From the IMG/VR virus record IMGVR_UViG_3300028840_003126, positions 1-41,387 of that record: DNA of 41,387 nucleotides. The stretch is one strand, 5' to 3'. The DNA is from a virus. Under the pieces are notes generated by a model. It had not been told where the DNA came from, did not search any database, and saw only the letters and a list, made by a program, of their open reading frames with translations. A program made the position numbers and the translations under genes. This document shows, one piece after another, positions 1-41,387 of the stretch; position 1 is the stretch's first letter, and the number at the start of each line of letters is the position of its first letter.

Positions 1-144
1 ATATATGGATCAAGGCCAATATAGGCTTTTAATTGTTCAAGTGATGCATCAATGTTTGAAAAGTCAGATGCAAACACCCTTAAATCATTATAAGGTTGAT
101 CAGCGCCAACATTTAAAACATCAGCTGCCGCCCAATCATGTACG
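1..144. repeat. Terminal direct repeat, left copy (identical to 41244..41387)
   Basis: Read directly. Bases 1-144 (atatatggatcaaggcc...cccaatcatgtacg) recur exactly as the last 144 bases of the window. Confidence 0.95.
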
Positions 145-602
145 GTTGCTGTGTTTGGAAATATTGAACTTTCCGCAGCCGTTCCTCTGTTATAATTGAT
201 AGCGGTGACTTGATCCTGGTATTGTGGCGCGTAAATCTGTTTGGTGGAATTAATAACATTTCTAACGGTATTCCCCGATACGGAATGGCCACCACCCGAT
301 AAAGTCACTTGGTTAACGGGATGAACGTCAATAACAATTCCATAATCACTTGCATGTGTATATTTACCATTTACCTGTGTCGTATTGCCTGTAATATGAT
401 TTCCTGTTATTGAAACATTGTTGGTGTTAGATGTAACCATAATTCCACCATAACCACGAAACGGATTAAACAAACTTATTCCTGTAGTGTCCCATTGTGG
501 GATTGAATCAAGACTGCCAGCATCACTAATATGCTCCCAAGCATAAGGCCACGTAATCCATCCAGAATCACCATCACTTATCGTTCTCGGTAAGTCTAAG
601 TC
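1..602 (-). CDS. Continuation of the beta-helix reading frame after the interruption; runs off the left edge and continues via the terminal repeat into 41243..40688
   Basis: Manual translation in the same frame as 618..2048: CLDLPRTISDGDSGWITWPYAWEH...NVSITGNHITGNTTQ...HSVSGNTVRNVINS...VFASDFSNIDASLEQLKAYIGLDPYI. No stop from 602 to 1. The frame is in phase with ORF 40688..41320. No canonical start codon lies near 602. Confidence 0.7.
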
Positions 603-617
603 ATTAGCATTGTCATC

Positions 618-2048
618 ATTAAAATAAATTCTCGATATTAAAGTGTCGCTCGCCGTTCCCTGTCTTATATATGCTGAGTGTGGTATCCGGCCAAAAACAT
701 TGATAATATTGTTGGCTATTGAACCATAATCACAACTTGAATAATAATGAATACCTTCAGCCCCGACATTTTCTACCTGATTGTTTGCCGTTACTACATT
801 AACCGATTGCTCTATCCTTATACCTGTTTGAACATCTCTTACATGATTACCGGAAACAATCGCTTTTCTTACCATGTCGGTTTTTATCCCTGCAATTCCT
901 GTATCATGTAAAGTTCCGGGTGCAAGCCATTTATATTGTCCTGATCTGTAAACCCGATTATTTGTTATCGTCACAGAATGGCAGTCTGTATCATCCCAAG
1001 TTATACCATGTGATTCATTCCCACCCACAGATATTGAATGGTTATAATATCCTGCATTATACATCCAGCAATCATTAATAATAATATTTTTAGAATTTGC
1101 ATTTGCCCCATTATCACCTATATGCATTCCATAAGATGTTGTCCCTGTTATTTTAAGTCTTTCAATCCTTACATCATTAACATCCCTGAAAAGAATTGCA
1201 GCTGCCTTAAAATAATCTCCATCCCACATCATTGTTGTATCATTTGGATATGTTTCATGTGTTATATATAAATCCTGAACTGCAATATTTGAAACACCAT
1301 CACCTCTTATACAATAATTCAAGGAATCAAATGTAAATCCGGATACTTCCCTATTAAAACCAAATAATGTGACATCATTTTTCATAAAAATTGATGAACC
1401 GATTCTATAATTACCAGCAGGAATAAGAACTTTTCCTATTCCATAGGTGGATGCTGAATCAATTGCAGCTTGTATTGCTACATGGTCTTCTGTGGCATCA
1501 TTCGGAGTTGCCCCTGTAAATAATATATTTATATATCTAGGATATATGTTTGTTAAAGTTGATGTTGTATCCAGCCAGGTTTCATTTACGGATATCGTAG
1601 AATCTGGATTTGCAATAATAGAATTATCATCAGCTTGATTTTCAATATTTCCACCGCTTCCCATATATTGCAATGCTGCAGTTGTTAATTTGCTTAATGT
1701 AATTACTGAATCTTCAATTCCCTGATTATCTAAAAGATTATTATAATCAGGATCCATTTGTTCCAATGTTTCATTTATCTGTCTGGTTCCATGCCAGATA
1801 GTTTTTTTATTTACATTATCAATATATAGATAATATTGGCCCCAGACTACAGATGAATTTTCATAAACACCGGGACTGGTTTCTGTTAGGTCATATGCCT
1901 TGGTATCTGTGTCATAATAGTATAGATCCACATCCACACCGGTCACTGCTGATTTATTTGGATATTCAAGAACCTTCATTATGGGTGATGTATTCTGGGC
2001 CAGCAATGGTGTGGCCAAAATTATAAAAATTAAAATAATATATCTCAT
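618..2048 (-). CDS. Signal-peptide-bearing right-handed beta-helix protein (pectate-lyase fold, tailspike/depolymerase-like), N-terminal ORF of 476 aa; not in the supplied ORF track
   Basis: ATG at 2048 follows tagggggaattt (SD-like GGGGG). I checked codon by codon and found no stop until TAA at 620-618. N-terminus is MRYIILIFIILATPLLAQ. The motif TEDHVAIQAAIDSASTYGIGKVLIPAGNYRI is typical of the Pectate_lyase_3 cap, and repeated xxNxxI coils follow. Confidence 0.85.
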
Positions 2049-8789: not shown

Positions 8790-8980
8790 TTTTTCCCCAG
8801 GATATCCATCAGATCTTCATACATCTTTTCAGATCTGATTAATTGATTTTTATAATCTTCTGACCTTACACACCTGATGGCCTTCCGAAAATAAATGATA
8901 TTAAAATCCAGTATTTCCAAAAATTTCGTGACATCATCTGATTCAAGTATGACAGTCTTTTCATCCAGATCAGCTTTCAT
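8759..8980 (-). CDS. Hypothetical protein (73 aa)
   Basis: ORF track. Coupled by overlap to its neighbours (8977-8980, and a 31-nt overlap with the TMP start). Confidence 0.5.
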   Translation of the reverse strand: MKADLDEKTVILESDDVTKFLEILDFNIIYFRKAIRCVRSEDYKNQLIRSEKMYEDLMDILGKKWREKTKISG

Positions 8981-12303: not shown

Positions 12304-14249
12304 TAATTTTTGACCTTAAAATTTAGGTTTTTAAAATATTCATGCAATTTGTTTACGTCTTTTTCATGTTCCTTGCTTTTTGTATAATAAAAATAATATC
12401 TGATTTCACCAAATGTGATCACCAATGGCTGTGGCACATCACCGATGGCTGCAGCTGCCTGTGGTGTGAAGATTATATCACCATATATGAATGTGGGATC
12501 TGACTTGGATCCAATGGCACTGGCCGGATCCGGTGTGATAAAAAATTGACCGGCAAAAACTTTCGGATCTGCTTTGGATCCAATGGCACTGGCCGGATCC
12601 GGTGTGATCGATAATGACCCATATATCACCACAGGATCTGTTTTATTGCCCAGGGCATTGATGGCATCTGGTGAAATAATTAGGCTGCCCAGGACCACAG
12701 TGGGATCTGACTTGGATCCAATGGCACTGGCCGGATCCGGTGTGAAGTTTATATCACCATATATAAATGTAGGATCCACCTTGGATCCAATGGCATTGAT
12801 GGCTGCCGGTGTCAAGGTCAGTGTGCCATATATAACTGTCGGATCTACTTTTCCACCCAGGGCATTAATCGGATCCGGTGTGACCAGTTCCACATTTGCT
12901 GGAATTGTGGGATCCACTTTTCTGCCCAGGGCATTGATGGCTGATGGTGTGATCGTCTGGCTGCCCAGGACCACAGTGGGATCCACTTTGGTTCCGATGG
13001 CATTAATCGCACCTGGTGTGATAATTAAACCACCACCCAGGACAAAGGGATCCACTTTTCTGCCCAGGGCATTGATGGCTGCCGGTGTGATGGCCAGGCT
13101 GCCCAGGACCACTGTGGGATCCACTTTTCTGCCCAGGGCATTAATCGCACCTGGTGTGATGGCCAGGCTGCCCAGGACCACTGTGGGATCCGCTTTTCTG
13201 CCCAGGGCATTGATGGCTGCCGGTGTGATCGTCTGGCTGCCCAGGACCACTGTGGGATCCACTTTGGATCCAATGCCACTGGCCGGATCCGGTGTGATGG
13301 GTGGCTGGCCAATGGCCACGGTGGGATCCACTTTTCTGCCCAGGGCATTGATGGCTGCCGGTGTCAAGGTCAATGTGCCATATACAACTGTCGGATCTAC
13401 TTTGCCACCCAGGGCATTGATGGCTGCCGGTGTGATGGCCAGGCTGCCATATATGACTGTTGGATCCACTTTGGTTCCGATGGCATTAATCGCACCTGGT
13501 GTGATGGCCAGGCTGCCCAGGACCACTGTGGGATCCACTTTGGATCCTATGGCATTGATGGCTGCCGGTGTGATCGTCTGGCTGCCCAGGACCACTGTGG
13601 GATCCACTTTGGTTCCTATGGCATTGATGGCTGATGGTGTCAAATTCAAACTTCCTTTCACAACTGTTGGATCCACTTTGGATCCTATGCCACTGATGGC
13701 ACCTGGTGTGATGATCAGGGCTGTGGCTGCAGTCAATACCTGTGGATGTGTTTCAGTTCCCAGATTTATTTCTGCATATCCGGTGCCATCTCCACTGTTT
13801 AACACCCGGAAATAATATGTGGTGCCACCAGTCACATTGGCAGTGGGCACAATGGCAAAATCAAATTCATAATCACTGCCGGCTAACATGTCAAATGTCG
13901 TTTGACCATCTGATTCCCTGTATGGCCCTTTTCCGGTGGTGTCTGACAATTTATTTGTGGTGACTGTATTATCTTCTGTGGCCTGGCCATTGGCATAATC
14001 AAAATGATTTGCTGATCCCAAAACGGTCCATGATGATTCATCTGTTGAATATTCAATACGCCAATATCCATTGTTTTGTCCACTCTCACCAGTGGATTCA
14101 TATATCCTGACCCTCAATCTAAAAATATCAGAATTGTTGGCCAGTGTCGGTTTCACATTTTCTGCTGCCAGGGCAGTGGATGGTTCTGCTGCATCATCAT
14201 CCATCATCCGCCAATTGCCCTGATTTGGTGTGAAGGCAGCATGGCCCAT
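12303..14249 (-). CDS. Repeat-containing fibre/decoration-like protein (648 aa): ~179-aa N-terminal domain, 19 x 23-aa repeats, short C-terminal tail
   Basis: ORF track. I/L/V/F-T/S-P recurs at residues 180, 203, 226 ... 594 with no indel. Confidence 0.85.
   Translation of the reverse strand: MGHAAFTPNQGNWRMMDDDAAEPSTALAAENVKPTLANNSDIFRLRVRIYESTGESGQNNGYWRIEYSTDESSWTVLGSANHFDYANGQATEDNTVTTNKLSDTTGKGPYRESDGQTTFDMLAGSDYEFDFAIVPTANVTGGTTYYFRVLNSGDGTGYAEINLGTETHPQVLTAATALIITPGAISGIGSKVDPTVVKGSLNLTPSAINAIGTKVDPTVVLGSQTITPAAINAIGSKVDPTVVLGSLAITPGAINAIGTKVDPTVIYGSLAITPAAINALGGKVDPTVVYGTLTLTPAAINALGRKVDPTVAIGQPPITPDPASGIGSKVDPTVVLGSQTITPAAINALGRKADPTVVLGSLAITPGAINALGRKVDPTVVLGSLAITPAAINALGRKVDPFVLGGGLIITPGAINAIGTKVDPTVVLGSQTITPSAINALGRKVDPTIPANVELVTPDPINALGGKVDPTVIYGTLTLTPAAINAIGSKVDPTFIYGDINFTPDPASAIGSKSDPTVVLGSLIISPDAINALGNKTDPVVIYGSLSITPDPASAIGSKADPKVFAGQFFITPDPASAIGSKSDPTFIYGDIIFTPQAAAAIGDVPQPLVITFGEIRYYFYYTKSKEHEKDVNKLHEYFKNLNFKVKN
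12402..13712 (-). repeat. 19 tandem 69-bp coding repeats (consensus ITPAAINAIGxKVDPTVVLGSLx)
   Basis: Exact 23-codon periodicity. Many units share identical runs of more than 30 bp (for example gccaggctgcccaggaccactgtgggatccacttt). Confidence 0.9.
14001..14040. repeat. 40-bp exact repeat, copy 1 (inside the fibre gene, encodes ESSWTVLGSANHF)
   Basis: aaaatgatttgctgatcccaaaacggtccatgatgattca is identical at 26672..26711. Confidence 0.9.
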
Positions 14250-14570
14250 TTATTTTATCCTTTTCCAAATATAACTGCATTTATCATGCAGTTTTTCATG
14301 TGGATCCCTGGGATAGATTGCACACCAATATGGCCTGGACCACATGATATTGCATTTTCCCTGCTGTATTCCATTTTCTGTTTCCCTGGTATATTTTTTG
14401 CAAGATCCATCCGGGTTTCTTAATTCAGGCACCGGCATTTTTGTCTGTTCGCAACACTGGCCACACCGGTTGCATTCACCGGTCAATTCCCAAACTTCAC
14501 CATTTTCCAGGATTGCTTTCCTGACAGCTGTCCTTGGTTCAATGATTGAAATTTCAATTTTTGTCGGCAA
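14250..14570 (-). CDS. CxxCxxCC-motif protein (YkgJ / UPF0153-like putative Zn- or Fe-chelating domain), 106 aa
   Basis: Contains GECNRCGQCCEQ plus further Cys residues (C..C..W.C). Its stop abuts the start of the repeat protein gene. Confidence 0.7.
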   Translation of the reverse strand: MPTKIEISIIEPRTAVRKAILENGEVWELTGECNRCGQCCEQTKMPVPELRNPDGSCKKYTRETENGIQQGKCNIMWSRPYWCAIYPRDPHEKLHDKCSYIWKRIK

Positions 14571-14985
14571 AGCTCATTTTCCAGACTGCAGCCTTCACCC
14601 TTTTATATTCAGCTGTCGCATTATATGCTTTGCCGGTCACTTTATATTTTCTGGCATCCCAAACTTTTTCCGGTTCTGTCGTTATTCTCAGCAGCATGGT
14701 TTCCTGGTCACCGGCATATCTTTTGACAATATCATATTTCAGAAATTTTGTCATCACTTGCCTGGCACATTCCACTTGTTCAAATGTGGGATCTTTTTCC
14801 GGGAATCCCAGGATTTTTAAAAACATAGGATAAATGACTTCACCACTGACCACAATTTTTTCACCGGCCAGTTCCTTCCCTGCTTCTGAATCCCACTGTG
14901 AAAATTCTTCAATTCCTGCCCAGGATGGCAATTGCTGCTTGACCAGTGGATTGACCTTGCTGATCATTTCCCTTGGAACCTTCAT
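14554..14985 (-). CDS. Hypothetical protein (143 aa), first gene after the 260-bp intergenic gap
   Basis: ORF track. SD-like aaaaggggaaaaaat precedes the ATG. Confidence 0.65.
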   Translation of the reverse strand: MKVPREMISKVNPLVKQQLPSWAGIEEFSQWDSEAGKELAGEKIVVSGEVIYPMFLKILGFPEKDPTFEQVECARQVMTKFLKYDIVKRYAGDQETMLLRITTEPEKVWDARKYKVTGKAYNATAEYKRVKAAVWKMSFADKN

Positions 14986-15130
14986 ATTTTTTCCCCTTTT
15001 TTATGGTTTTTGGCATACTATTTGTACAATCATAAAAATCATCATATGGCACATTATTTGCTTGCCTGTTTTTTGGCCTTTTTTCCGGTCATACAATTTC
15101 CATGCCAATTTTTAAAAGTTTATTAGACTC

Positions 15131-15181
15131 AAAATATGGGCGAAATAGGCCCATTTCCAGAAATCAATGGTTTTATATGCC
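15131..15181 (-). promoter_or_regulatory. Partial third copy of the AATGGTTT..ATATG box followed by a GGGC/GCCC hairpin
   Basis: The minus strand reads gcatataaaaccattgatttctggaaatGGGCctatttcGCCCatatttt. The box resembles those at 30768-30790 and 38408-38429. Confidence 0.35.
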
Positions 15182-15245
15182 TAAAATAGCCCAAAATTAA
15201 TAAAACTTTTTTTAAGCCATTTCCAGGCAATTTTCAAAACTTTTT

Positions 15246-15704
15246 TTATGTTTCTGAAATTCTGATTTCACAATCCTGCAGTGTCAGATCCTGGCCATCA
15301 GAAACAGATCTGTCAGATGTCAGATCAAAATAAAAATATATTTCCCTGTTGGCCTGGGTTGCATTATCATCACAGATGATTGCATACCTGGCACCATTTC
15401 CACTGGCCGGGATAGGACCACCGGATGCAGACCAGGTGATGTCCTTCAACTGGACCAGTGCCCAGTCACTTGCATCCACTTCTGTCCAGGTGTCCCAATC
15501 TGTGGAATTAAATGACAGTGATGTCCCACCGGCCACATATCCATTCCCGGCTGCAATTTCTGTCATTTCTGTTTCTGTGTTTGTGTCCGGGCCTGGTGCA
15601 GCTGCAGATGTGACCAGTTCAATATAAAAATTGGTCGGTTTTGTTTCACCTCGGAAATATTGTCCCAGGACCTGATATTTTCCTTTGTTTGTCCAGCCTG
15701 CCAT
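15246..15704 (-). CDS. Hypothetical structural-module protein (152 aa)
   Basis: ORF track. SD-like aagggggattaataATG. Confidence 0.65.
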   Translation of the reverse strand: MAGWTNKGKYQVLGQYFRGETKPTNFYIELVTSAAAPGPDTNTETEMTEIAAGNGYVAGGTSLSFNSTDWDTWTEVDASDWALVQLKDITWSASGGPIPASGNGARYAIICDDNATQANREIYFYFDLTSDRSVSDGQDLTLQDCEIRISET

Positions 15705-16741: not shown

Positions 16742-17116
16742 CTAATCTGATGCATTATATCCACTGTTCACAATTAAATATGAATATTTATCTGTATTTG
16801 CTGTTTCAGATCCGGATGATGTGACAAAGACTGTGTCACCTGATGTGGCCACATCATATCTTAATGTTCCGGTTGCTGTTTTGGGTGTTAAATAGACAGT
16901 GCATGTGGTGTCCACCCCACTTACCACTAAAGTGTCTAAAGTTCCGGTTGTGGCCCATAGTCTTTCACCGGCAAATTGTGCATCACTGCCATATAAAAAA
17001 CCCTTCACCTGTGGATTCCACAGCCTGTTCATCTGTCCTGTGAATAACATGGTCATGATCAGTATTAAGCCAATGACCAGGAATGCTGTAAAAAATCCTG
17101 ATTTGAATGTTTTCAT
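16742..17116 (-). CDS. N-terminally membrane-anchored or secreted protein (124 aa)
   Basis: Hydrophobic N-terminus FFTAFLVIGLILIMTMLF. SD-like taaaagggacaatcATG. Confidence 0.6.
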   Translation of the reverse strand: MKTFKSGFFTAFLVIGLILIMTMLFTGQMNRLWNPQVKGFLYGSDAQFAGERLWATTGTLDTLVVSGVDTTCTVYLTPKTATGTLRYDVATSGDTVFVTSSGSETANTDKYSYLIVNSGYNASD

Positions 17117-18153: not shown

Positions 18154-18209
18154 GATTATTTCCCCTTTTTAAAATTCAATTTTATTTAATTAGAATAAAC
18201 CGGCCAGAT

Positions 18210-20150: not shown

Positions 20151-20162
20151 GGTTATCCCCTT

Positions 20163-20402
20163 TTAATATATCAGATCCCGGTCATCCCGGTCATCTATAA
20201 TTTCAATGATTTTACCATCAGGATCCTGTTCCAGCATGGCCAGGGCAATGTGATATTCCGGGAATGGATCAGATGGTGATATACCATCCGGATCCATCTG
20301 GACATTCAATATGTCCTGGATCTTTTTATCATCACTGGTCCACTGGTTTCCTTCAATTGTGGCCTGTTCTCCAAATATTTGGATGGTCACTTCTGACATC
20401 AA
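20163..20402 (-). CDS. Hypothetical acidic protein (79 aa)
   Basis: ORF track. Overlaps the upstream gene by 4 nt. Confidence 0.6.
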   Translation of the reverse strand: MMSEVTIQIFGEQATIEGNQWTSDDKKIQDILNVQMDPDGISPSDPFPEYHIALAMLEQDPDGKIIEIIDDRDDRDLIY

Positions 20403-22060
20403 TATTTTCCCCTGACCAAATTATATATAAAATCAAAATATTCCGGATCACCAACTGCCAGGGCATATGGATCCTTATAATAATATTCTAATCCCATGGA
20501 CAATATTTCACTGGCCCGGCCACCATAATCCTTGCCCATATATGGATTTATAAATTTATCCCTTTTTGTGCCTTCATGCCTTCTGTATGAATCACCCAGC
20601 CAGGTTGTTCTTTCATTAAATGTTCTTTTCTGATAAAATCTTTGGATCTGTTCCTGGACTTTTGGGTGTAGATCTTCCAGCCAGTGTCCTAATTCATGGA
20701 CCACTGCCCTGGCACCAGAATTTGGTCCCAGGTTGACTGATGGACCACGGCCATCCGGATCCTTATCATGAAAATATGCCCTGGATGATGACACCTTTTT
20801 GAACTGCAGTTTATTGGCATCGGTCATGTCAGCAGGATCCAGGATGTCTTTGCTGATGAATCTGGTGAAATACTGGATGCCGGACCTGATCTGACTTTGC
20901 ATCTGTGTGTCCCTGGTCCGGATTTTATGTCCCAGCTTAAATCCAAAATCTCCGGATTCCTTGACATACAATTTCTGACTTAAATCACTGGTCAGATTTC
21001 GCCTGGCATCATTGACTTTGGATAATTGTTTATGCCATTTATTCCATGCTTTTTCCTGCTGATCAGCCAGGGTTTCCATCTTATTTTTTAAATCAAAATA
21101 TTTTCTTTTCAGATCTGCTGGCCAGTTTTCATTTGGATCCCAGGATTGTGCCACCCTGAATCCTTCACCCTGGACATTTAACCACTTATTGTTTAATTCA
21201 TCCAGTGGTTCAGTGAATGATAACCATGTATTTTTATATTGATCAGATAGATTTTCCATTTTAATAATGGATTTCATCCTGGATTGATGTGTCTTGATGA
21301 TATCTTTCCGGATGACCGCAGGATCTGTGGCCACCGGTGGTTTTTTCTTTGGCACTTTTTTCCTGGCTGCTGCCCTGGCTTTTTTAACCTTATCCGGTGT
21401 GACAAATTTCATTTCATCCGGTTTCATCACCGGATTTCCTGATGATGCCTTTAAATTTTCAGATATATGCACCGGTCTGATCCGGCACCGGCAATTATGA
21501 TCCAGTGGTGGCTGCAGGATCTTCCAGACCGGATCATTTGCCGGTGCAGTATATTCATTATTATCCCGGTGTGATTTTCTTTCCCGGCCATCCAATGTGG
21601 TGACATATTGCCATAATGGAAATTCAGATATATCTGACTGTTTCATCATGGCCATACTGCCTTCATTTAAGGCAGTTTGCATATTATTCCGGAATACAGT
21701 TTTTAAATGATAATCATTTAAGGCATGCATTCCTGAATTCATGAATATTGTGTCTACATTTGCCAGCCATTCTGCAGTGGGAATTCCGGTGGCCAGGGCA
21801 TTGTCAATTGATTTTTTTATGTCATCCAATAATCTTTGGCTGTCTATTTTGGCCACAGTAAATGCAAACTTTCTGGACTTTTTATCCAGCTTTAAAAATT
21901 CATTTTTGGTGATGATGTTTTTTGATATAAAAAATTTCACAGCTTCATCATAAGCTGTGGGAATGTCATCAGCCTGAAATTCTTTTGCCTTCATTTTTCC
22001 CATAAGATCATTCATGTCATTCCTGCCATATAGATCAGCCAGGATCATGGACCTGGCCAC
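20399..22060 (-). CDS. Head morphogenesis protein (Mu F / SPP1 gp7 family) fused to a C-terminal HExxH domain, 553 aa
   Basis: YVTTLDGRERKSHRDNNEY...PPLDHNCRCRIRPV is the Phage_Mu_F signature. VVHELGHWLEDLH lies at residues 453-465. Confidence 0.8.
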   Translation of the reverse strand: MARSMILADLYGRNDMNDLMGKMKAKEFQADDIPTAYDEAVKFFISKNIITKNEFLKLDKKSRKFAFTVAKIDSQRLLDDIKKSIDNALATGIPTAEWLANVDTIFMNSGMHALNDYHLKTVFRNNMQTALNEGSMAMMKQSDISEFPLWQYVTTLDGRERKSHRDNNEYTAPANDPVWKILQPPLDHNCRCRIRPVHISENLKASSGNPVMKPDEMKFVTPDKVKKARAAARKKVPKKKPPVATDPAVIRKDIIKTHQSRMKSIIKMENLSDQYKNTWLSFTEPLDELNNKWLNVQGEGFRVAQSWDPNENWPADLKRKYFDLKNKMETLADQQEKAWNKWHKQLSKVNDARRNLTSDLSQKLYVKESGDFGFKLGHKIRTRDTQMQSQIRSGIQYFTRFISKDILDPADMTDANKLQFKKVSSSRAYFHDKDPDGRGPSVNLGPNSGARAVVHELGHWLEDLHPKVQEQIQRFYQKRTFNERTTWLGDSYRRHEGTKRDKFINPYMGKDYGGRASEILSMGLEYYYKDPYALAVGDPEYFDFIYNLVRGKY

Positions 22061-22119: not shown

Positions 22120-23517
22120 TCAGATTTTTTTTTTACTGTCCTTTTTGAACCAATTTAAAAAACCGGTCCAGGTTTTCACGCCCTGATTCTGGTATTGCTC
22201 ATATAATTGTTCATATTCATCCGGATCCGGGATAAAATCATCCTGGAATTCCTGCATGTCTTTTCTGTTGTCCGGTTTTTTGGCCTGTGGTTCCCCACTT
22301 TGCACTTCTGATGGCTGCAAAATATCCATTCCATCTGTGGCCATCGGAATGCCGGTGGATTCATGTGCCCATTGCACCGGGATTTTCATTCCGGCATTGA
22401 CCAGATTTGCCAGTGTCTGTGATAGTGAAATCAGGGCACCAATGTCAATGCCTAAAAATTTGAATTTGGGATATACATCTGTCAGGAAATTATAATCCAC
22501 CAGCCTTTTTATAATTTGCTCATTGACAGCATGTGAAATGTCAAAGGCATCAAAGGCCACATAATCTTCCATGGTCTGGGCATGTGTCTGTCCCAGGGCA
22601 TAGGATCCCTGGCCCCTTTTTCCTTCTTCACTGGACAGTGTTTGGCCAATGATGATTTTGCTGATTTCTTTGTTGCACCGTTCAATGAAATTGTCATAAC
22701 CGACTTCACCGGATCTTTCAGCTTCCAGGAAATCCACCACAAAACCTTTTGGCACTCGGATCCCGGTATCCTTCCGGACAGCTTCCAGAATTTCATCCAC
22801 CTTGGCAATTTCTTCCGGTGTGGCCTTGGCTGGCATTTCCACCCTGGTCAATGGCATTCCAAATCTTTCAGAAAATATGGCCCAGAATTTTGCTTCATTT
22901 TCTTTTAACCACACCCAGAATGCAGACTTTGCACCAAATGAATCACCATATGGGTTTTCATCATTTGGTCCATTGATAATATGGACAAATTTGTATGTGG
23001 GCATCACTTTTTCTTCCGGATCAAATTGCTTTATGATCCATCGGCCATATCTGTCAAACTTGAATGTGAAATATTTGGCCGGTTTAAATCGCAATGATTG
23101 CAATCCCACTTTGCCCTGGTATCTGCCACGGACCAGTCTGGCATAATTGATTTCTGTCAGGCTGAATCCTTTGCTGATTTTATCCAGCATGGCTTCCAGG
23201 TCATTTTCAAAACTTCCATGCATGGCTTCCAGTTGATGATTGACAAAATCTGAAATCTGGATGTCCCTGGCAGAATCAGATGCAGGATCCACACGCCATC
23301 CCTTTTTCATCAGTTTCTGTCTTCTGGTGGCCAGGACACTGGTGAAATGTGTGTCCCTTTCCACCTTTTTTTCCAGATATTCCATCCCTTTGGATGATAT
23401 CAACTTGTCCGGGTTTTCTTTGTCGGATATTCCATATTTATATAAAATATCATACCCGGCTGCAGCTGCCTGGGTGAAGATCCTGGGATCCGTTTTGGTG
23501 TTTTTTTGTTCTGCCAT
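22120..23517 (-). CDS. Portal protein (Mu gp29 / DUF935-like), 465 aa
   Basis: Size and position between TerL and the Mu-F-like gene fit. Sequence character resembles the family by eye. Confidence 0.8.
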   Translation of the reverse strand: MAEQKNTKTDPRIFTQAAAAGYDILYKYGISDKENPDKLISSKGMEYLEKKVERDTHFTSVLATRRQKLMKKGWRVDPASDSARDIQISDFVNHQLEAMHGSFENDLEAMLDKISKGFSLTEINYARLVRGRYQGKVGLQSLRFKPAKYFTFKFDRYGRWIIKQFDPEEKVMPTYKFVHIINGPNDENPYGDSFGAKSAFWVWLKENEAKFWAIFSERFGMPLTRVEMPAKATPEEIAKVDEILEAVRKDTGIRVPKGFVVDFLEAERSGEVGYDNFIERCNKEISKIIIGQTLSSEEGKRGQGSYALGQTHAQTMEDYVAFDAFDISHAVNEQIIKRLVDYNFLTDVYPKFKFLGIDIGALISLSQTLANLVNAGMKIPVQWAHESTGIPMATDGMDILQPSEVQSGEPQAKKPDNRKDMQEFQDDFIPDPDEYEQLYEQYQNQGVKTWTGFLNWFKKDSKKKI

Positions 23518-28010: not shown

Positions 28011-29045
28011 TCAAAACTTGCCACCTTCTTTTATATCATGATTAAGTTTTTCCCTGGCCTTTTTTAAGATCTGGACAAAGCCAGTCTGGTGTTTTGGTGC
28101 CTGCAGATCTGTGGTGCCACGCAATTTGATTGTTTCCGGACTGATCACATCAGCAATGTGTATATATCTCATAGTGGTTTCCAGCCAGGCATGGCCCATC
28201 AGGATCCGCAATTGTTCCACCCTGGTGCCATGGATCACTGAATATGTCCCAAAAAAATGCCGGAAACTGTGTGTGCTGATCCGCTTTGTGATATCAGCAT
28301 TTTTCCTGGCCCTGGCAATGACACCTTTTATGCCAGAAATATTTAACCGGCCACCATGATGTTTCCGGCCATACTGGATAAACAAGGGATCTGAATCCCT
28401 GTGATTTTGTACATACTTAATATCCTGATAATAGGCTGCAAAAAATTCAGCCACCATTGCACCGGCTGTCAGATAACCAAAAGGGACCAGCCTTTCCCTG
28501 CTTTTTATCCTGGGCACCACCAGGGCAAAATTATTTTCATGAATCTGAATGCTGCCAATATTCAGTGCCTGGCATTCACTGACCCGGATCCCGGTATCCG
28601 CTAAAAGACACAGGATGGCTGCATCCCTTCTGCCAATGGGCTTGGAGGTCTTGCAGGAATAAACCATCCTGGTCAGTTCATCCGGTGTGAACATTGATGG
28701 GATCTTGATTTCTTCCTGGATAGGACCAATTAATTCACACGGATTTTTTATATGATATCGCTTTGAATACCAGTCATAAAATATTCTGATCGATGCCTGT
28801 TTTATTTTTTGGGTGTTGATGCTGTTCTTCTGGTCCACTTTCAGGTGGATAATATAATCCTGGACATCTTCCATGGTGATTTCTTCCGGATTTTCTTTTT
28901 TTGTCCAGGCAAAAAATGACCTGATATTCATCAGATATCGATTGACAGATGATTCCCTTTTGTCCTGGTTTACAATTTTATATTTCTTGAAATCTTCCAG
29001 GGCAAATTCCAGTTCCCTGTTATTTTTCAGATCCATATTATCCAC
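28011..29045 (-). CDS. int: Tyrosine recombinase / phage integrase (344 aa)
   Basis: Catalytic signature ADTGIRVSE (R), HSFRHFFGT (HxxR), LMGHAWLETTMRYIH (H/W and Y), with an N-terminal SAM-like domain. Confidence 0.9.
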   Translation of the reverse strand: MDNMDLKNNRELEFALEDFKKYKIVNQDKRESSVNRYLMNIRSFFAWTKKENPEEITMEDVQDYIIHLKVDQKNSINTQKIKQASIRIFYDWYSKRYHIKNPCELIGPIQEEIKIPSMFTPDELTRMVYSCKTSKPIGRRDAAILCLLADTGIRVSECQALNIGSIQIHENNFALVVPRIKSRERLVPFGYLTAGAMVAEFFAAYYQDIKYVQNHRDSDPLFIQYGRKHHGGRLNISGIKGVIARARKNADITKRISTHSFRHFFGTYSVIHGTRVEQLRILMGHAWLETTMRYIHIADVISPETIKLRGTTDLQAPKHQTGFVQILKKAREKLNHDIKEGGKF

Positions 29046-37874: not shown

Positions 37875-38345
37875 TTAAGATTGATTTTTTATAATGCCAT
37901 TTGTGATATGGGCATGCTGAAACATGTGACCAGGGCAGGATTTATATGGTGCCTTGTCCCGATGAAATATTATTTTATCCTGGCCAATATCGAATATTTT
38001 CATCAATGGGATGATCAATCTGGTGCAGGCCACATCAATCATTTCCACCGGTGGTGCTTTTTCATCATAGTTTCCCACAAAACAGATGGCAATTGCCTTT
38101 TTATTCATTCCACCTTCTTTGATATGGGCACCTGGCAAATGCAATGGCCTTCCCACCAGGACTTCATATGTATTGTCAATCAATTCAATCCCATAATGAT
38201 ATCCAACATCTGACCATCCATTTTCATTTATATGCCAGTTCCGGATGGCACGCCAATTGAACACAGTGCCATCTGTAGACAATGAATGATGGATCCCAAT
38301 GTGTGTCCAGGGCCTGAATATTTTCTTTTTTCTGCTAAATATCAT
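37875..38345 (-). CDS. N-acetylmuramoyl-L-alanine amidase endolysin (Amidase_2/PGRP type), 156 aa; the track start at 38423 is too far upstream
   Basis: THIGIHHS, GYHYGI and FHRD..YKSCPG motifs. GGAAGGGGA lies upstream of the ATG at 38345. The longer track ORF reads through the hairpin-U7 element. Confidence 0.85.
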   Translation of the reverse strand: MIFSRKKKIFRPWTHIGIHHSLSTDGTVFNWRAIRNWHINENGWSDVGYHYGIELIDNTYEVLVGRPLHLPGAHIKEGGMNKKAIAICFVGNYDEKAPPVEMIDVACTRLIIPLMKIFDIGQDKIIFHRDKAPYKSCPGHMFQHAHITNGIIKNQS

Positions 38346-38361
38346 GATTATCCCCTTCCAT

Positions 38362-38397
38362 AAAAAAAGTGGCTTCCATATTTCGATTCTAAGCCAC
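38362..38397 (-). terminator. Leader element B: 7-bp stem, conserved 15-nt loop, U7 (A7 and T6 flank it on the plus strand)
   Basis: The minus strand reads GTGGCTTagaatcgaaatatggAAGCCACttttttt. Confidence 0.7.
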
Positions 38398-38407
38398 TTT
38401 TTTAGAT

Positions 38408-38429
38408 AGGTTAATGGTTTCATATGTCC
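38408..38429 (-). promoter_or_regulatory. Leader element B: conserved upstream box
   Basis: The minus strand reads ggacatatgaaaccattaacct. Confidence 0.45.
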
Positions 38430-38481: not shown

Positions 38482-39102
38482 TCACCAGATATTGAACCGG
38501 AAATTGCCCAGGAACAGATTATCAGATCCATGCCGGACATATTGAATTCCATATCTATTCACAAAGACACCGGCACCAATTGCCGGATATTGTCCAAACC
38601 CGGCACTGATCATAAAATCCACACCCAATGGCAGGACTTTCTGATATTCTTCTTCAAAAAATTTCAGATATGCCTGCCGGTTCAAACTTGTTTGAATATG
38701 GAAGGAATCCACCTTGCATGGTGCAAAGGCATCCACCCGGCCATCTATAAATTTGGCAGAAAATGCCCTGGTGGATTTTTGATATGGAATCATCACCGGT
38801 GGACCCGGATCCGGATCCGGCATGTCAATGATGATGATTTTACCTTCTTCGTCTGTTCCCCTATTTCTGATCATTGCATCTAAATCCAGGACCTGGATGG
38901 AATCAATTTCCGGCTGGGCAGGGATCCATTTGATTATTTCCACAGTGTCTGGTGGGACTGTTTCATCCACGGTGAAATATAGGGTGTCAATTTTTTCCAC
39001 CATTTCATATATTGTCACCACCCTTGGTTTAATAAAATATAAAACCGTGAACACTGATAGGATGATTACAACAATCATCAGAATTGCTGTTGTTTTATTC
39101 AT
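38482..39102 (-). CDS. N-terminally anchored envelope protein (206 aa) with an OMP-like aromatic C-terminus
   Basis: AILMIVVIILSVFTVLYF. A PDPDPGPP linker. The protein ends GNFRFNIW. Confidence 0.6.
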   Translation of the reverse strand: MNKTTAILMIVVIILSVFTVLYFIKPRVVTIYEMVEKIDTLYFTVDETVPPDTVEIIKWIPAQPEIDSIQVLDLDAMIRNRGTDEEGKIIIIDMPDPDPGPPVMIPYQKSTRAFSAKFIDGRVDAFAPCKVDSFHIQTSLNRQAYLKFFEEEYQKVLPLGVDFMISAGFGQYPAIGAGVFVNRYGIQYVRHGSDNLFLGNFRFNIW

Positions 39103-39548
39103 CGGTGACTTCCCACTGATTCAATTTTGGTTGTATGGGTTCCAGATGTAATATATCGCACTCGATAACCCCAACAAAAGGCAGGTGAATCACCGGATAT
39201 ATCCAATTCATAGGCAATGGAATCTGTGCCAGCTGCACAGGTGATGGCTGACATTGCTTGCCAGGGACCATATCTTGTTGGATGTTTTGCCCTAACTTTG
39301 GAATATTCTGGTGTGACACTTACTGTGTCACCTGTAAGATTTTTAATATATCCACCCACATTTATTGATCCACCCATGTCATCTGGCCTATCAAATAATA
39401 TGGTTCTGGTCAAAACGGTGTCTGCATTTGTCAGGGTGTCCAATGCTGCCGGTGATGAATCAATGCCAAATAAATCATTCTGACCGGTTATCTGCCCATG
39501 AATAATAACTGATATAAATAAAAATATAATAATAAATATTTGTTTCAT
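39099..39548 (-). CDS. Secreted protein (149 aa)
   Basis: MKQIFIIIFLFISVIIHGQ is signal-like. First gene of the low-GATC cassette. Confidence 0.65.
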   Translation of the reverse strand: MKQIFIIIFLFISVIIHGQITGQNDLFGIDSSPAALDTLTNADTVLTRTILFDRPDDMGGSINVGGYIKNLTGDTVSVTPEYSKVRAKHPTRYGPWQAMSAITCAAGTDSIAYELDISGDSPAFCWGYRVRYITSGTHTTKIESVGSHR

Positions 39549-39563
39549 TTTAAATCCCCCTAT

Positions 39564-40691
39564 TTAATTTCGATTGCCTGATATTGTCCATGGATGCCAT
39601 TTATTAATTTGATGCCATCCCTTAAAACATGGACCAAACTTTTTATAATTATTTCCTGGATTTATTATTCCATTAATTGTTTTGATGCAATTAGACACAG
39701 ATATAAAATCCTTATTATTTAAATTTATTTGATCTATAATGGGCCTAAGCCCGAATCCATATGTGGAATAATATATATTTTTTGCAAAGATTCCAGATGA
39801 TGGCACATTCAAGGTGTCATCCCAGACTTCATTCTTTTTAAATAGTATTTTATCACCCGGTCTTGTATATCTGGCATTCACTTTTTCAATCGTCTTTATG
39901 GGATTTTCGGATTCAAGCCCTGAATTATTATCATTCCCATTTGTATAATCTACATAGCTTGTCCAAGATGGATTTTGAAGATAATTATAATAATCCTGAT
40001 GTTCTGCCAATGTACGCCTTTTATTGCTTATTCTTATTTCCCCAATTTTTCCGGCCATCATTAAAGTTCCATCGTCTATGGCACCAATAGCTGCTACCAT
40101 TGAATCTCCACCTGTAAAATCAGTATTAGCAACATCAAAACCACCATAAATGCCTTTGCGATAATAAAGTATACTATCCTTGCCCGTACTCCAAGTCATA
40201 CCAATAAACCACCAACCATAACCATAAGTTGTCGCAGGCCAGCCGATATTATCAGCTTCCCCACCTATACCGGCACCAGCTTGATAAATATTTGAATTTT
40301 TACGGATCCAAAAATTATTTCCAGATGGACCGGATTTTAAGAAAATAACGTATTCAACCCCTGTGTCATCGTCATTTTTGAACCACGCTTCAATCGTTCC
40401 TGCCGTATCAAGCCCATGAGATACAAAAACCACACTATCAGATATTAAGGCATCATCTATCCCATCCCAAACAGTATAAACACTATCACTATCAACTGTC
40501 GGCCTTTCACCTATGGCCTTATAAGTGCATAGGACAGCATTTACATGATCCGCCCAAGTGTCAAGAGTATCATTACTTTGTGTAAATCCTATGCCCTGTT
40601 TCCAATAATAAATGGTGTTTGCATCAATTGGATTGAATTGAGCTGATAAAATTACAGGAATTATTAGTATCAATAATAAAATATATTTCAT
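39564..40691 (-). CDS. Secreted LamG/concanavalin-like lectin-domain protein (375 aa) with a beta-helix-cap-like C-terminal part
   Basis: MKYILLLILIIPVILSAQ. WDGIDDALISD is the LamG_3-type motif. YVDYTNGNDNNSGLESENPIKTIEKVNARYTRPGDKILFKKNEVW resembles a beta-helix N-cap. Confidence 0.7.
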   Translation of the reverse strand: MKYILLLILIIPVILSAQFNPIDANTIYYWKQGIGFTQSNDTLDTWADHVNAVLCTYKAIGERPTVDSDSVYTVWDGIDDALISDSVVFVSHGLDTAGTIEAWFKNDDDTGVEYVIFLKSGPSGNNFWIRKNSNIYQAGAGIGGEADNIGWPATTYGYGWWFIGMTWSTGKDSILYYRKGIYGGFDVANTDFTGGDSMVAAIGAIDDGTLMMAGKIGEIRISNKRRTLAEHQDYYNYLQNPSWTSYVDYTNGNDNNSGLESENPIKTIEKVNARYTRPGDKILFKKNEVWDDTLNVPSSGIFAKNIYYSTYGFGLRPIIDQINLNNKDFISVSNCIKTINGIINPGNNYKKFGPCFKGWHQINKWHPWTISGNRN

Positions 40692-41387
40692 TCTTCTATT
40701 CTCCTGATTATAAGGTTATCAAAAGTTTGAATTGAATCTTGGCTTTGTATGGCCCATCTTGCTACATCACTGTGATATCCGGCTGAATCTTGCAAAGCTG
40801 TGTGTGAACCATTTGTGTTCTGAATAATCACACTGTAAACTGTATCATTTGCTGTCACTATAAAATGATCATTATTTGTGACAATGGCTGATGGATTAGA
40901 TCCGGTTGAAATTACTGTTGCACCACCACCAGCATCATTATACATAAATCTTACGGTGGAATCTGATTGCATTGAAAATCCCAGCCAGTTGTTATTGTCT
41001 TCATAATGAAAATAAAACCAGGCTGTCCTGCCCGTTACCCAGCCATTTTCAAAATCAAATTCCGCAACATAATCAGAATCTGATAATGCAATACTTGCCC
41101 TAGCTGTCGAGCCATCATCTGTGGTGGCTTTTTTGTTTTTTATTCCCATGTTTCCTAATTCTGGGATCCAGATACTGTCAATATCAGAAAATTTTGGTAC
41201 TGTCAATGAATCATTATTTATTCTGCCAAATTCATCTGCAAATATATATGGATCAAGGCCAATATAGGCTTTTAATTGTTCAAGTGATGCATCAATGTTT
41301 GAAAAGTCAGATGCAAACACCCTTAAATCATTATAAGGTTGATCAGCGCCAACATTTAAAACATCAGCTGCCGCCCAATCATGTACG
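40688..41387 (-). CDS. C-terminal part of the interrupted beta-helix gene (jelly-roll-like C-terminal domain); the upstream part lies at 602..1 through the terminal repeat
   Basis: Track ORF 40688..41320 begins at an internal GTG. The frame stays open to 41387 and is in phase with 1..602. ATGA overlap with 39564..40691. Confidence 0.75.
   Translation of the reverse strand, partial: VHDWAAADVLNVGADQPYNDLRVFASDFSNIDASLEQLKAYIGLDPYIFADEFGRINNDSLTVPKFSDIDSIWIPELGNMGIKNKKATTDDGSTARASIALSDSDYVAEFDFENGWVTGRTAWFYFHYEDNNNWLGFSMQSDSTVRFMYNDAGGGATVISTGSNPSAIVTNNDHFIVTANDTVYSVIIQNTNGSHTALQDSAGYHSDVARWAIQSQDSIQTFDNLIIRRIEE
41244..41387. repeat. Terminal direct repeat, right copy (identical to 1..144)
   Basis: Same comparison. 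This is the signature of a circular assembly overlap or true terminal redundancy. Confidence 0.95.

Follow-up and report, generated by a model that had tools for sequence, protein, structure and literature searches.

We analyzed a window of 41,387 nucleotides (the whole stretch of DNA studied here), which is a circular temperate phage genome of 41,243 bp plus a 144-bp assembly overlap. Three consecutive genes with predicted signal peptides, designated g1, g2 and g3, lie in its late operon, in which the order is tape measure, 1242-aa hub-like protein, the 312-aa g53, g1, g2, g3, the membrane protein g4 and the endolysin g5. The genes and their parts are as follows:

6723-8789, minus strand: tape measure protein (phrog_1538, phrog_32115)
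2998-6726, minus strand: 1242-aa hub-like or tail-tip-like protein, conserved in contigs L001, L004, L005, L007, L033-L035 and L037
2058..2996, minus strand: g53, 312 aa, without signal peptide, conserved partner directly upstream of g1
1..2048, minus strand: g1, first 682 of 867 codons, tailspike-like (signal peptide, N-module, beta-helix)
1998-2048, minus strand: g1 signal peptide, aa 1-17 (sequence features)
1554-1997, minus strand: g1 N-module, beta-sandwich and linker, aa 18-165 (HMMER hits, alignment A1, AF2 model)
129-1541, minus strand: g1 right-handed beta-helix, about aa 170-640 (PHROG, Pfam and PDB matches)
40688..41243, minus strand: g1, last 185 codons and stop, contiguous with 1-2048 on the circle
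40688..41243 plus 1-128, minus strand: g1 C-terminal beta-rich domain, aa 641-867 (48% identity to P0004)
41244..41387, no strand: assembler overlap, exact duplicate of 1-144; genome circular or circularly permuted
39564..40691, minus strand: g2, 375 aa, open reading frame with signal peptide
40641-40691, minus strand: g2 signal peptide, aa 1-17 (sequence features)
40002-40418, minus strand: g2 weak ConA/LamG-like region, aa 92-230 (Laminin_G_3)
39735-39965, minus strand: g2 right-handed beta-helix N-terminal cap, aa 243-319 (PDB matches, aa 239-320)
39099..39548, minus strand: g3, 149 aa, no family match
39495-39548, minus strand: g3 signal peptide, aa 1-18 (sequence features)
38482..39102, minus strand: g4, 206 aa, N-terminal membrane anchor, native composition, downstream boundary of the cassette
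37875..38423, minus strand: g5, Amidase_2 endolysin (Pfam 6.5e-12; phrog_822 1.6e-18)

The three reading frames and N-termini quoted in the original prediction are exact (39548 to 39099, 149 aa; 40691 to 39564, 375 aa; 2048 to 1 with 41243 to 40688, 867 aa), and so is the proposed wrap across the genome ends: both ends of the window are a 144-bp exact direct repeat, and the 867-aa g1 is unbroken in contigs that were assembled independently and are permuted differently (JGI, 41,366 bp; ENA k141, 41,384 and 41,246 bp; Logan, 10.6 kb). Therefore, the wrap is real and not a chimera. The phage, which encodes an integrase, is an uncultured temperate siphovirus.

The g1 product matches phrog_2234 (tail spike; 3.7e-17), Pfam Beta_helix (9.6e-6; 25.7 bits, cut-off 25.9), NosD (6.5e-4) and the AlgE4 beta-helix in the PDB (4.8e-5, aa 174-448), and tblastn matches it to Vibrio phage tail proteins; the identity to P0004 extends over both the helix and the C-terminal domain. 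The beta-helix is likely to have a role in cleaving or modifying glycans. It should be noted that an identity as mannuronan C5-epimerase was considered and rejected: the AlgE4 heptapeptide YGFDPHE aligns with YGMHIGD of g1, and the motif YG(F/I)DPH(D/E) is absent, so that, as judged from the alignment, the AlgE4 A-module and g1 have the fold in common and not the catalytic motif. The AF2 model of the g1 N-terminus comprises a helix (2-16) and a sandwich (20-86) at pLDDT of about 90. Fold searches with the N-module returned generic Ig-like/CnaB matches, plus non-significant tailspike matches; the BFVD matches were weak (E>=1e-3), mostly to tailspike or tail-fibre N-termini. A signal-less g1 isoform starting internally at Met24 was also rejected; this start has no G-rich upstream motif, and the Met is not conserved in relatives.

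The g2 product matches Laminin_G_3 at 22.3 bits (E=1.6e-4), below the curated cut-off of 27.6, and its aa 239-320 match PDB 7v6m_A (2.6e-10) and the GH136 lacto-N-biosidase 6kqs (7e-6); a single-sequence AF2 model reached a pLDDT of only 31.6. Because the protein ends about 55 residues past the beta-helix cap, g2 may be a truncated remnant; no continuation of the helix was found in other frames. The g3 product belongs to no recognisable family and is an orphan in our searches. Of the LamG-like, jelly-roll-like and pectate-lyase-like domains predicted originally, the g1 beta-helix stands and the weak LamG-like match belongs to the 375-aa protein, whereas the 149-aa protein matches no family. 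A glycan-type character of the g1-g3 products (beta-helix, ConA-like) is nevertheless supported by the predicted domains.

Word-indexed protein searches with g1 and g2 retrieved the queries themselves, and no homologue of g2 besides g2 was found; a metagenome scan with g1/P0004 had no match, an IMG/VR scan with a beta-helix alignment produced only weak pectate-lyase-motif matches, and IMG/VR scans with the 206-aa g4 and the 312-aa g53 found nothing. The g53 product had no Pfam or PHROG match. An apparent similarity between g53 and the g1 C-terminus covers 24 residues only.

Composition and mosaic structure

The g1-g3 region is one of two strong compositional outliers in the genome. The GATC counts given in the original prediction, 1 in 661-1500 versus 12 in 20161-21000, are exact, and only 0.14% of 840-nt windows outside the g1-g3 region contain one GATC or fewer. 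The 4.2-kb cassette has 5 CCWGG sites versus 38 expected at the genome rate, 3.1 GATC per kb versus 8.9, and 3.6 CCGG per kb versus 9.7. In addition, 4-mer divergence of the cassette windows is more than 10 MAD over the median, and synonymous codon usage differs from that of the genome (for example, CTG 0.06 versus 0.46 and ATC 0.09 versus 0.43). Thus, the distinct oligonucleotide make-up holds by 4-mers, site densities and codon usage alike. The claimed absence of CCGG/GGCC texture is correct only in part: both words are rarer per kb in the cassette, yet they are still about 3-fold over-represented relative to base composition.

An artefactual origin of this anomaly, either as an end-of-contig chimera or from lower GC or amino-acid content alone, would fit the position of the region at the ends of the window and its GC of 0.36 versus 0.41. 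This explanation is refuted, and its probability is negligible: four independent assemblies have the same order, with g1 internal in the permuted contigs; low GC alone is insufficient as a cause because the segment at 35-37.5 kb, native and equal in GC to the cassette, keeps normal site densities; and the measure of synonymous codon usage already corrects for amino-acid content.

The foreignness is patchy along g1-g3, and is concentrated in two cores, with a further CCWGG-poor stretch upstream of g1:

129..1028, minus strand: foreign core 1, g1 aa 341-640, beta-helix core
40152..40691, minus strand: foreign core 2, g2 aa 1-180, signal peptide included
2058-2459, minus strand: g53 C-terminal third, CCWGG-poor and of low GC (0 CCWGG versus 3.7 expected)

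In core 1, the codon-adaptation score is -0.05 to -0.45 (the 1st percentile of the genome is 0.03), CpG outside CCGG occurs 30 times versus 5.5 expected (p=3e-13), and CpG and GTA are near unbiased. In core 2, the codon score is -0.34 to 0, and CpG outside CCGG occurs 12 times versus 3.3 expected (p=1.6e-4). Much of the cassette is near-native in codon usage; this applies to the g1 C-terminal domain, in which CCWGG is scarce, and g3 is native-like. By these measures the two cores look young and foreign, and the rest of the region looks partly adapted to the genome. The older segments have acquired the avoidance biases of the genome and not its palindrome enrichment.

The cassette is therefore a mosaic of young and older segments that reaches into the C-terminal third of the upstream g53, and the proposal of a single unit fails on both counts, mixed ages and extent. 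Of the boundaries proposed at about 39100 and 2050, the first agrees with the native g4 downstream (4 nt are shared by the g3 stop and the g4 start), and the profile is not uniform; the second is misplaced, as the low-CCWGG stretch begins at about 2460, within g53. Composition and domain shuffling suggest that recombination recently brought in parts of the region. The swap is deduced rather than seen directly, because exact-sequence look-ups of g53 and g4 retrieved only contigs with the same cassette, and no sister strain with an alternative one; no repeats flanking the cassette were found as an insertion mark.

Predicted N-terminal signals and their conservation in relatives

The predicted signals, with a slash at the cleavage site, are MR-YIILIFIILATPLLA/Q for g1, MK-YILLLILIIPVILSA/Q for g2 and MKQ-IFIIIFLFISVIIHG/Q for g3. 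Each has K/R in the n-region, 14-15 uncharged residues before the cleavage site, A/G at -1 and Q at +1. Among the 53 open reading frames, only g1-g3 and one small head-module frame combine a hydrophobic N-terminus with a following [A/S/G]Q. As originally proposed, the three N-termini resemble cleavable signal peptides: they have every feature of Sec/signal peptidase I signals that can be read from sequence. They also agree with the Q-rule. In Bacteroidetes, this rule, defined in PMC5837995, applies to a mean of 71% of signal peptidase I substrates (PMC5837995; see also PMC10653852). The host is probably in the Bacteroidota/FCB group; the capsid protein gives no host clue, because the Mu-like heads that it matches span many phyla.

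HMMER matches of g1 fall into two classes, N-module-only (aa 2-165, up to 51% identity) and beta-helix (aa 168-864, best 48%); some beta-helix matches have their own signal and Q without the N-module. The N-module (g1 aa 1-165: signal peptide, beta-sandwich and linker) was found in at least 40 metagenomic proteins with unrelated C-terminal domains. Alignment A1 includes 20 N-modules of 27-46% identity, with unrelated C-termini, and is too divergent for pattern scans; a word-indexed protein search with the N-module alignment found nothing. One motif scan of low sensitivity did not detect the N-module in 185,579 reference genomes, and the searched collection of cultured phages had no match to the N-module or to the 1242-aa protein. 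Among 44 members of the N-module family, 36 signals parse strictly and 6 more by eye. The strictly parsed signals contain K/R in 35 of 36 cases, an uncharged stretch before Q with a median of 15 residues (range 11-18), A (21), S (10), G (4) or T (1) at -1, L/V/A/I at -3 and Q at +1. Gln at +1 is present in all three of g1-g3 and in about 42 of the 44 family members, and the Q18 column of A1 is at least 90% conserved.

It could be argued that the hydrophobic N-termini are not signals but structural elements, such as a trimerisation or baseplate-insertion helix of ordinary, cytoplasmically assembled fibres. The tail-operon location, the modular architecture and the helical aa 2-16 of the AF2 model are compatible with this view. 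However, what is conserved in the segment is a physico-chemical pattern rather than a sequence. The -3/-1 rule is followed, with Gln at +1, in about 95% of members, and the uncharged stretch falls short of the length needed to cross a membrane. Such a segment is also found on unrelated LamG-only and small proteins of the locus, as well as on beta-helix relatives without the N-module. We regard this explanation as quite improbable.

Export and cleavage of g1-g3 are, accordingly with respect to these features only, what we would predict. No lipobox was found in g1-g3, and a type IX C-terminal sorting domain (Por_Secre_tail/TIGR04183) was detected neither in g1-g3 (Pfam, NCBIfam) nor in the proteins of relatives (Pfam), so that type IX cargo is rejected. 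Since both elements are missing, g1-g3 would get no farther than the periplasm unless lysis frees them.

About ten related phage contigs (30-54% GC) encode signal-bearing proteins at the g1-g3 position, including L004-L008, L033, L034, L035 and L037. In a Pfam scan covering L004-L007, these proteins matched Beta_helix, CBM_4_9 or Laminin_G_3 in L004-L006 and no Pfam family in L007; the L006 analogues of g2 have strong Laminin_G_3 matches (1e-13 and 3e-14). Immediately before the signal-bearing fibre gene, L004, L005 and L007 have a g53 homologue (BLASTP), and L033, L034 and L037 have a g53-like gene, judged by position, size and N-terminal motif. In this phage and in nine relatives alike, the signal-bearing genes are placed in the tail module after those for the tape measure and hub proteins, and the signal proteins remain with the tail module even where the lysis gene does not follow. 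Because signal-bearing genes are kept at the equivalent position, g1-g3 are not a one-off insertion.

This bears on the proposal of a moron or lysogenic-conversion unit, i.e., a recently inserted, independently expressed block of foreign secreted proteins with no tail role. A moron is expressed from signals of its own and is distributed sporadically among phages; lambda lom, which lies near tail-fibre genes, offers a parallel. Distinct composition and codon usage, the signal peptides and the integrase also speak for this proposal, as do phages of Porphyromonas gingivalis (Nixviridae), in which five Q-rule genes have been proposed as possible host-surface modifiers (PMC10367356). Similarly to g1-g3, predicted signal peptidase I cleavage of the Nixviridae proteins exposes Gln, which was read as an adaptation to host export (PMC10367356); unlike in those five genes, the signals here are a family-wide feature of the tail-fibre position, where the proteins that carry them are tailspike-like, LamG-like or small. 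The signal-peptide proteins of lambda lom/bor and gp40 of Xanthomonas phage PBR31, which resembles tail-associated hydrolases and was proposed as a lysis aid (PMC10975493), likewise come from genes that lie within or next to the late, tail or lysis genes. In contrast to morons, g1-g3 are tightly packed or overlapping in the operon (gaps of 9 and 15 nt, two 4-nt overlaps), leaving no room for their own promoter or terminator, and hold the standard position at the tail-operon end, at which about ten relatives have signal-bearing genes as well; sigma-70 and terminator consensus scans were uninformative. Furthermore, the N-terminal 165 aa of g1 are a lineage-conserved phage module, not found in bacterial genomes by the low-sensitivity motif scan, and codon usage is close to native in much of the cassette. 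The moron proposal is thus disfavoured as highly improbable.

Proposed role of the module in infection

Tail-fibre and depolymerase genes are the main host-range determinants of phages, and their products are assumed to be virion parts assembled in the cytoplasm. As noted originally, cleavable signal peptides would not be expected on tail fibres; this premise holds, and it accounts for the interest of the locus. Like P22 gp9, the K1F endosialidase and the Klebsiella depolymerases (PHROG 2234), g1 has a right-handed beta-helix with a pectate-lyase-type N-cap, and like tailspike/depolymerase receptor-binding proteins in general, it is encoded at the end of the tail module, combines a conserved N-module with swappable C-terminal specificity domains and has a mosaic, recombination-driven evolution. 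These known receptor-binding proteins lack a signal peptide and are assembled cytoplasmically, whereas here a predicted Sec/signal peptidase I signal with Gln is found on every protein of the locus, and virion membership is unproven.

Our main reading, which we consider about evenly balanced between being right and wrong, is that the region is the exchangeable host-glycan module of this lineage, located at the distal tail-operon end and matured outside the cytoplasm, with g1 acting periplasmically and g1-g3 absent from the virion. The genes would be transcribed late with the tail-lysis operon, and the products exported by Sec and cut by signal peptidase I, creating a new N-terminal Gln that host glutaminyl cyclase may convert to pyroglutamate. 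If exported and cut, g1-g3 would thus have the cell envelope, rather than the cytoplasm, as their site of folding and action. There, late in infection, g1 would trim or modify the host surface polysaccharide from the periplasmic side, with help from g2 and g3, so that receptor or capsule is cleared and progeny escape instead of being trapped. Because it must match host glycans, the module would evolve like a receptor-binding locus: recombination would keep the N-module, whereas the beta-helix core and the 5' half of g2 would be recent replacements and all other parts older ones. Among the original proposals, a swapped host-range module fits best, given the conserved N-module, the variable C-terminus and the two sharply foreign cores.

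A bacterial parallel is WceF of Pantoea stewartii. This beta-helix enzyme of tailspike fold is exported and trims the exopolysaccharide of its own producer, possibly in periplasmic transit (PMC7949094). The likeness to g1 is in the fold and in the export, predicted for g1; unlike g1, WceF is encoded in a chromosomal exopolysaccharide cluster, has a Tat and not a Sec signal (PMC7949094), and is without the phage N-module. A phage parallel exists as well. PblA and PblB of Streptococcus mitis phage SM1 are proteins of the tail-fibre type whose action extends beyond the virion to the bacterial surface; unlike g1-g3, they have no signal peptide, reach the surface via phage lysis and come from a Gram-positive host.

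An exclusively secreted role fits awkwardly with a conserved N-module and variable C-termini right after conserved hub-like genes, which is a hallmark of virion-anchored fibres. Alternatively, g1 might be a real tailspike, exported and processed periplasmically. In this case g2 and g3 would be exported along with it and would serve in assembly or as accessory factors, and the N-module would dock on the tail tip, at the 312-aa or the 1242-aa protein, only once lysis has mixed the compartments; we view this as possible, if rather unlikely. It agrees with the position of g1 at the tail-operon end, the conserved N-module with variable C-termini in at least 40 proteins, the co-occurrence of the N-module with homologues of the 1242-aa and 312-aa proteins, the resemblance of the linker motif I-DS-IT--KL to tandem repeats in family members (e.g., P0096 and P0039), the weak BFVD matches to tailspike N-termini and the lack of N-module matches in the one motif scan of 185,579 reference genomes. 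In P22, moreover, tailspikes attach late to finished particles. On the other hand, we know of no Sec-exported proteins assembled into virions of tailed phages, which makes the prior low; g53, without a signal and with its C-terminus in the exchanged stretch, could itself be the receptor-binding protein; the genome motif scan is low in sensitivity, and the structural matches are not significant. It is possible, though rather unlikely, that a whole lineage of FCB-group phages builds receptor-binding fibres outside the cytoplasm, by Sec export, trimming to pyroglutamate and attachment to finished tails only at lysis. If true, virion assembly would here include a step that follows export and takes place in a separate compartment, for which no precedent is known in Caudoviricetes.

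Returning to the exchangeable glycan module, its two-tier mosaic of young unbiased and older segments is a natural time series of a very strong genome signature being imposed on imported DNA, and the Q-rule signature would serve as a sequence-only marker of host phylum for uncultured phages. An uncultured phage family thus places predicted host-type export signals systematically on every protein at its tail-fibre locus. If such phages secrete tailspike-like glycan enzymes late in infection, the annotation "tailspike" does not imply a virion protein here; if their fibres are assembled after export, this would be a new assembly route.

Genome form and gene content

The region of interest and its neighbours, listed from the upstream side, are as follows.

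2998-6726, minus strand: 1242-aa hub-like protein
2058-2996, minus strand: 312-aa protein, directly upstream of g1
2048 to 1 and 41243 to 40688, minus strand: g1, 867-aa beta-helix protein
40691 to 39564, minus strand: g2, 375 aa
39548 to 39099, minus strand: g3, 149 aa; a 206-aa protein and the endolysin lie downstream

The three cassette ORFs, g1-g3, and their N-termini are exactly as originally quoted. The window ends are an exact 144-bp direct repeat (41244-41387 = 1-144), which leaves a circle of 41,243 bp of unique sequence. The same genes, permuted, are found in sister assemblies of 41,366 bp (JGI 3300017963) and of 41,384 and 41,246 bp (ENA, k141_*; the longer one with a 141-bp overlap), and in a 10.6-kb Logan contig. 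Because g1 is internal in the permuted sister contigs, the wrap is genuine, and the repeat reflects assembler overlap in a genome that is either circular or circularly permuted; it points to an artefact of a circular map, not a biological terminal repeat.

Each of the 53 plausible genes is encoded on the minus strand. Recognisable head and tail functions are a Mu-type portal, a Mu-F protein, an E-type major capsid protein, a tube protein and a tape measure protein; a primase, a tyrosine integrase and an Amidase_2 endolysin were also recognised. With this gene content, the tyrosine integrase indicates a phage of temperate type. The integrase is joined here with a Mu-type portal, Mu-F head genes and a BcepMu-like capsid protein (28011-29045, 22120-23517, 20399-22060), and no transposase was seen among the scanned proteins of the window. 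In a Logan contig (SRR6963591_203228, ~6400-8800), the cassette and endolysin are identical to those of the window and the small early genes partly differ; the early region is mosaic between near-identical phages.

The g1 protein matches phrog_2234, "tail spike protein" (3.7e-17), and Pfam Beta_helix slightly below the cut-off (9.6e-6); the closest PDB entry is the beta-helix of AlgE4 (4.8e-5), and tblastn adds distant matches to Vibrio phage tail proteins. Identity as an epimerase was rejected, because the AlgE4 catalytic motif is not conserved. A LamG-like domain had been proposed for the 149-aa protein; a weak ConA/LamG signal is present, but in g2 (aa 92-230), whereas g3 is an orphan with no family match. 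In g2 this region is followed by a beta-helix N-terminal cap (aa 243-319; 7v6m_A, 2.6e-10; GH136 lacto-N-biosidase, 7e-6), and the protein stops ~55 residues past the cap. Given this early end and no continuation in another frame, g2 may be a truncated remnant. Its C-terminal third (39564-39965) begins a right-handed beta-helix with a GH136-type N-cap and ends after a few turns, just before the start of the next gene, as if a longer secreted beta-helix protein had been cut to a stump. T9SS sorting domains and lipoboxes are absent from g1, g2 and g3.

Composition of the cassette and of the genome

The distinct oligonucleotide make-up claimed in the original prediction is borne out: in 4-mer usage, cassette windows exceed the genome's median divergence by >10 MAD, and one GC-rich gene at 12.3-14.2 kb is the sole other outlier. 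The counts of 1 GATC in 661-1500 against 12 in 20161-21000 are exact, and a count of <=1 occurs in 0.14% of equal-sized windows elsewhere. The CCGG/GGCC-rich texture, said to be absent, is only diluted: CCGG is rarer per kb in the cassette, but CCGG and GGCC both remain there at ~3x the level that base composition predicts.

Site densities in the rest of the genome and in the cassette
CCWGG: rest of genome, 337 vs. 39 expected; cassette, 5 sites (38 expected at the genome's rate)
CCGG: rest of genome, 361 vs. 66 expected, 9.7 per kb; cassette, 3.6 per kb
GATC: rest of genome, 328 vs. 131 expected, 8.9 per kb; cassette, 3.1 per kb
CpG outside CCGG: rest of genome, ~8-fold depleted; cassette, locally normal

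The CCWGG-poor stretch starts at ~2460, within the upstream 312-aa gene. Synonymous codons differ as well (rest vs. cassette: Leu CTG, 0.46 vs. 0.06; Ile ATC, 0.43 vs. 0.09; Arg CGG, 0.25 vs. 0.04). Low GC is not the cause of the anomaly, because site densities stay normal at 35-37.5 kb, a native region with the same GC.

The cassette is not, however, a single foreign block. The codon-adaptation profile (log2 RSCU against native genes; background mean 0.32, 1st percentile 0.03) shows a mosaic of two strongly foreign segments and a near-native remainder. The first segment, g1 aa ~341-640 (window 1028-129), has codon scores down to -0.45 and 30 CpG outside CCGG vs. 5.5 expected (p = 3e-13); the second, g2 aa 1-180 (40691-40152), includes the signal peptide and has 12 CpG vs. 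3.3 expected (p = 1.6e-4). CpG, GTA and ACG show almost no bias in either core, and GAG depletion is just ~3-fold. Codon usage is near-native in g1 aa 1-340 and 641-867, in the second half of g2 and in g3; these parts share the avoidance of GAG/CTC, CpG, CTA and GTA with the genome, without its CCWGG/GATC enrichment. We read this composition as suggesting imported DNA of at least two ages. Neither flanking repeats marking an insertion at the cassette nor a sister genome with an alternative cassette were found; the contig of the relative L001 ends within the 1242-aa gene.

The signature of 2049-39098 is itself unusual. GAG/CTC is nearly absent (80 vs. 928 expected, both strands; GAG makes up 3% of Glu codons), CpG outside CCGG is ~8x depleted, CTAG occurs 2 times vs. 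261 expected, GCGC and CGCG are ~0, and GTAC has an observed/expected ratio (o/e) of 0.10; CCWGG (8.5x), CCGG (5.4x), GGCC (3.5x) and GATC (2.4x) are over-represented. Synonymous codons are shaped to this signature, with sites mostly at codon junctions, e.g., xxC-CTG-Gxx and G-ATC. No DNA methyltransferase was seen among the scanned proteins of the window. The close relative L001 shares the whole signature; L006, from the same JGI sample as L001 and related to the window's, shares the palindrome enrichment only. Two IMG/VR relatives, L004 (3300012956_000019) and L005 (3300024520_000057), have the opposite pattern over ~20 kb (o/e of 0.00 for CCGG and CTAG, 0.05-0.10 for CpG, and in L005 also 0.00 for GGCC, GTAC and GCGC), which is in all likelihood classical multi-site restriction avoidance.

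A second compositional outlier comprises five genes at 12004-15704 (GC 53%, GATC up to 27 per kb). Its 648-aa protein (12303-14249) matches phrog_8501 (minor tail) in three stretches, and the block is wholly missing from L001, between homologues of the flanking genes. About a dozen late genes, g1 and g3 among them, have a purine-rich motif, AAAGGGGA(A/T), 5-10 nt ahead of the start codon (e.g., 2049-2065, 39549-39563 and 18154-18175); it is probably a Shine-Dalgarno-like G-run that avoids GAG. Typical Bacteroidota rarely use Shine-Dalgarno-like sites, and the motif would be unusual if the host is one of them.

Predicted signal peptides, shared across the family

Searched exhaustively with HMMER, g1 gave 288 protein matches, which fall into two classes. 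The first covers aa 168-864 (best match P0004, 48% identity); its member P0005, 32% identical to g1, has a signal of its own, "LLLAQPQ". The second covers only aa 2-165, i.e., an N-terminal module (N-module) of signal peptide, beta-sandwich and linker, followed in its members (218 to 1147 aa) by unrelated C-terminal domains. AF2 with the N-module alignment gave a helix at aa 2-16 and a confident beta-sandwich at aa 20-86; fold searches with the N-module returned generic Ig-like matches and non-significant matches to tailspike N-termini, and nothing else.

In the N-terminal hydrophobic segment, the pattern is kept while the sequence is not conserved. Across 20 aligned N-modules, conservation of the Gln that follows the hydrophobic stretch is >=90%, and 36 of 44 members parse strictly (six more by eye). 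Among those parsed, 35/36 have K/R in the n-region, the uncharged stretch before Q has a median of 15 residues (range 11-18), and the cleavage site reads L/V/A/I at -3, A21/S10/G4/T1 at -1 and Q at +1. This is, as far as the pattern can tell, the signature of Sec/signal-peptidase-I substrates in Bacteroidetes, known as the Q-rule, which is followed by a mean of 71% of such substrates in 334 Bacteroidetes species, with high shares also in some other FCB members, e.g., Ignavibacterium (PMC5837995). The exposed Gln is cyclised, stabilising extracytoplasmic proteins (PMC10653852). The signals of g1-g3 look genuine, because a hydrophobic helix of purely structural function would not retain the -3/-1/+1 rule when placed on unrelated proteins; g1, g2 and g3 should then mature outside the cytoplasm. 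The rule points to a putative host in Bacteroidota or the wider FCB group. The sole phage precedent found for Q-rule proteins comes from P. gingivalis phages, in five genes whose function is unknown (PMC10367356).

Only one other window protein has a hydrophobic N-terminus followed by GQ (MKTFKSGFFTAFLVIGLILIMTMLFTGQ): a 124-aa ORF directly after the major capsid gene (16742-17116), kept in L001 at 60% identity, whose hydrophobic stretch is long enough for a membrane span.

Synteny in relatives and possible roles of the cassette

The comparison covered ten contigs, with GC from 30 to 54%: six from IMG/VR (L004-L009) and four of 27-44 kb (L033-L035, L037). The latter four are binned into MAGs labelled Deferribacteres, Calditrichota (two) and Chromatiales; such bin labels are unreliable at phage-contig size, and these are probably phage contigs. 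A homologue of the 1242-aa protein is present in 7/10 contigs (L004, L005, L007, L033-L035, L037), with a signal-less ORF of ~300 aa in all of these except L035, and one to three proteins with a signal plus Q downstream. The N-module protein has 589-1147 aa, and the Pfam domains found in it (L004-L006) are a beta-helix plus CBM_4_9 or Laminin_G_3; next come proteins of ~150-420 aa, one of which, among those scanned, is LamG-like (L006). L006 and L008 differ in having a giant fused tape-measure-like protein, and the matching ORF of L009 has no signal. No homologues of g2 or g3 were found in these contigs, and no cultured phage searched carries the 1242-aa protein or the N-module. Since a lysis gene after the signal proteins is missing in several relatives' contigs, these proteins travel with the tail module, not with lysis genes. 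In the window, the junctions at the cassette (9-nt gap, 4-nt overlap, 15-nt gap, 4-nt overlap) leave no room for separate expression signals. This operon structure and the lineage-wide conservation contradict the proposed moron or lysogenic-conversion unit.

The conserved N-module adjoining conserved hub-like genes would also suit a g1 that is a virion tailspike after all, added after export once lysis mixes the compartments; no precedent for such an addition is known, which speaks against it, and we consider this main rival unlikely, though it would be more novel than an enzyme of the envelope. In the latter reading, to which we give roughly even weight, g1-g3 would work in the envelope at a late stage of infection, as an enzyme that trims receptor or capsule, together with helpers of lectin-like type. 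Two known proteins are comparable: WceF, which is tailspike-like and Tat-exported (PMC7949094), and an esterase of phage PBR31 that bears a signal, resembles tail hydrolases and is encoded next to the lysis genes (PMC10975493). The region is probably an exchangeable module of this lineage, directed at host glycans and reshaped by recombination beyond the conserved N-module.
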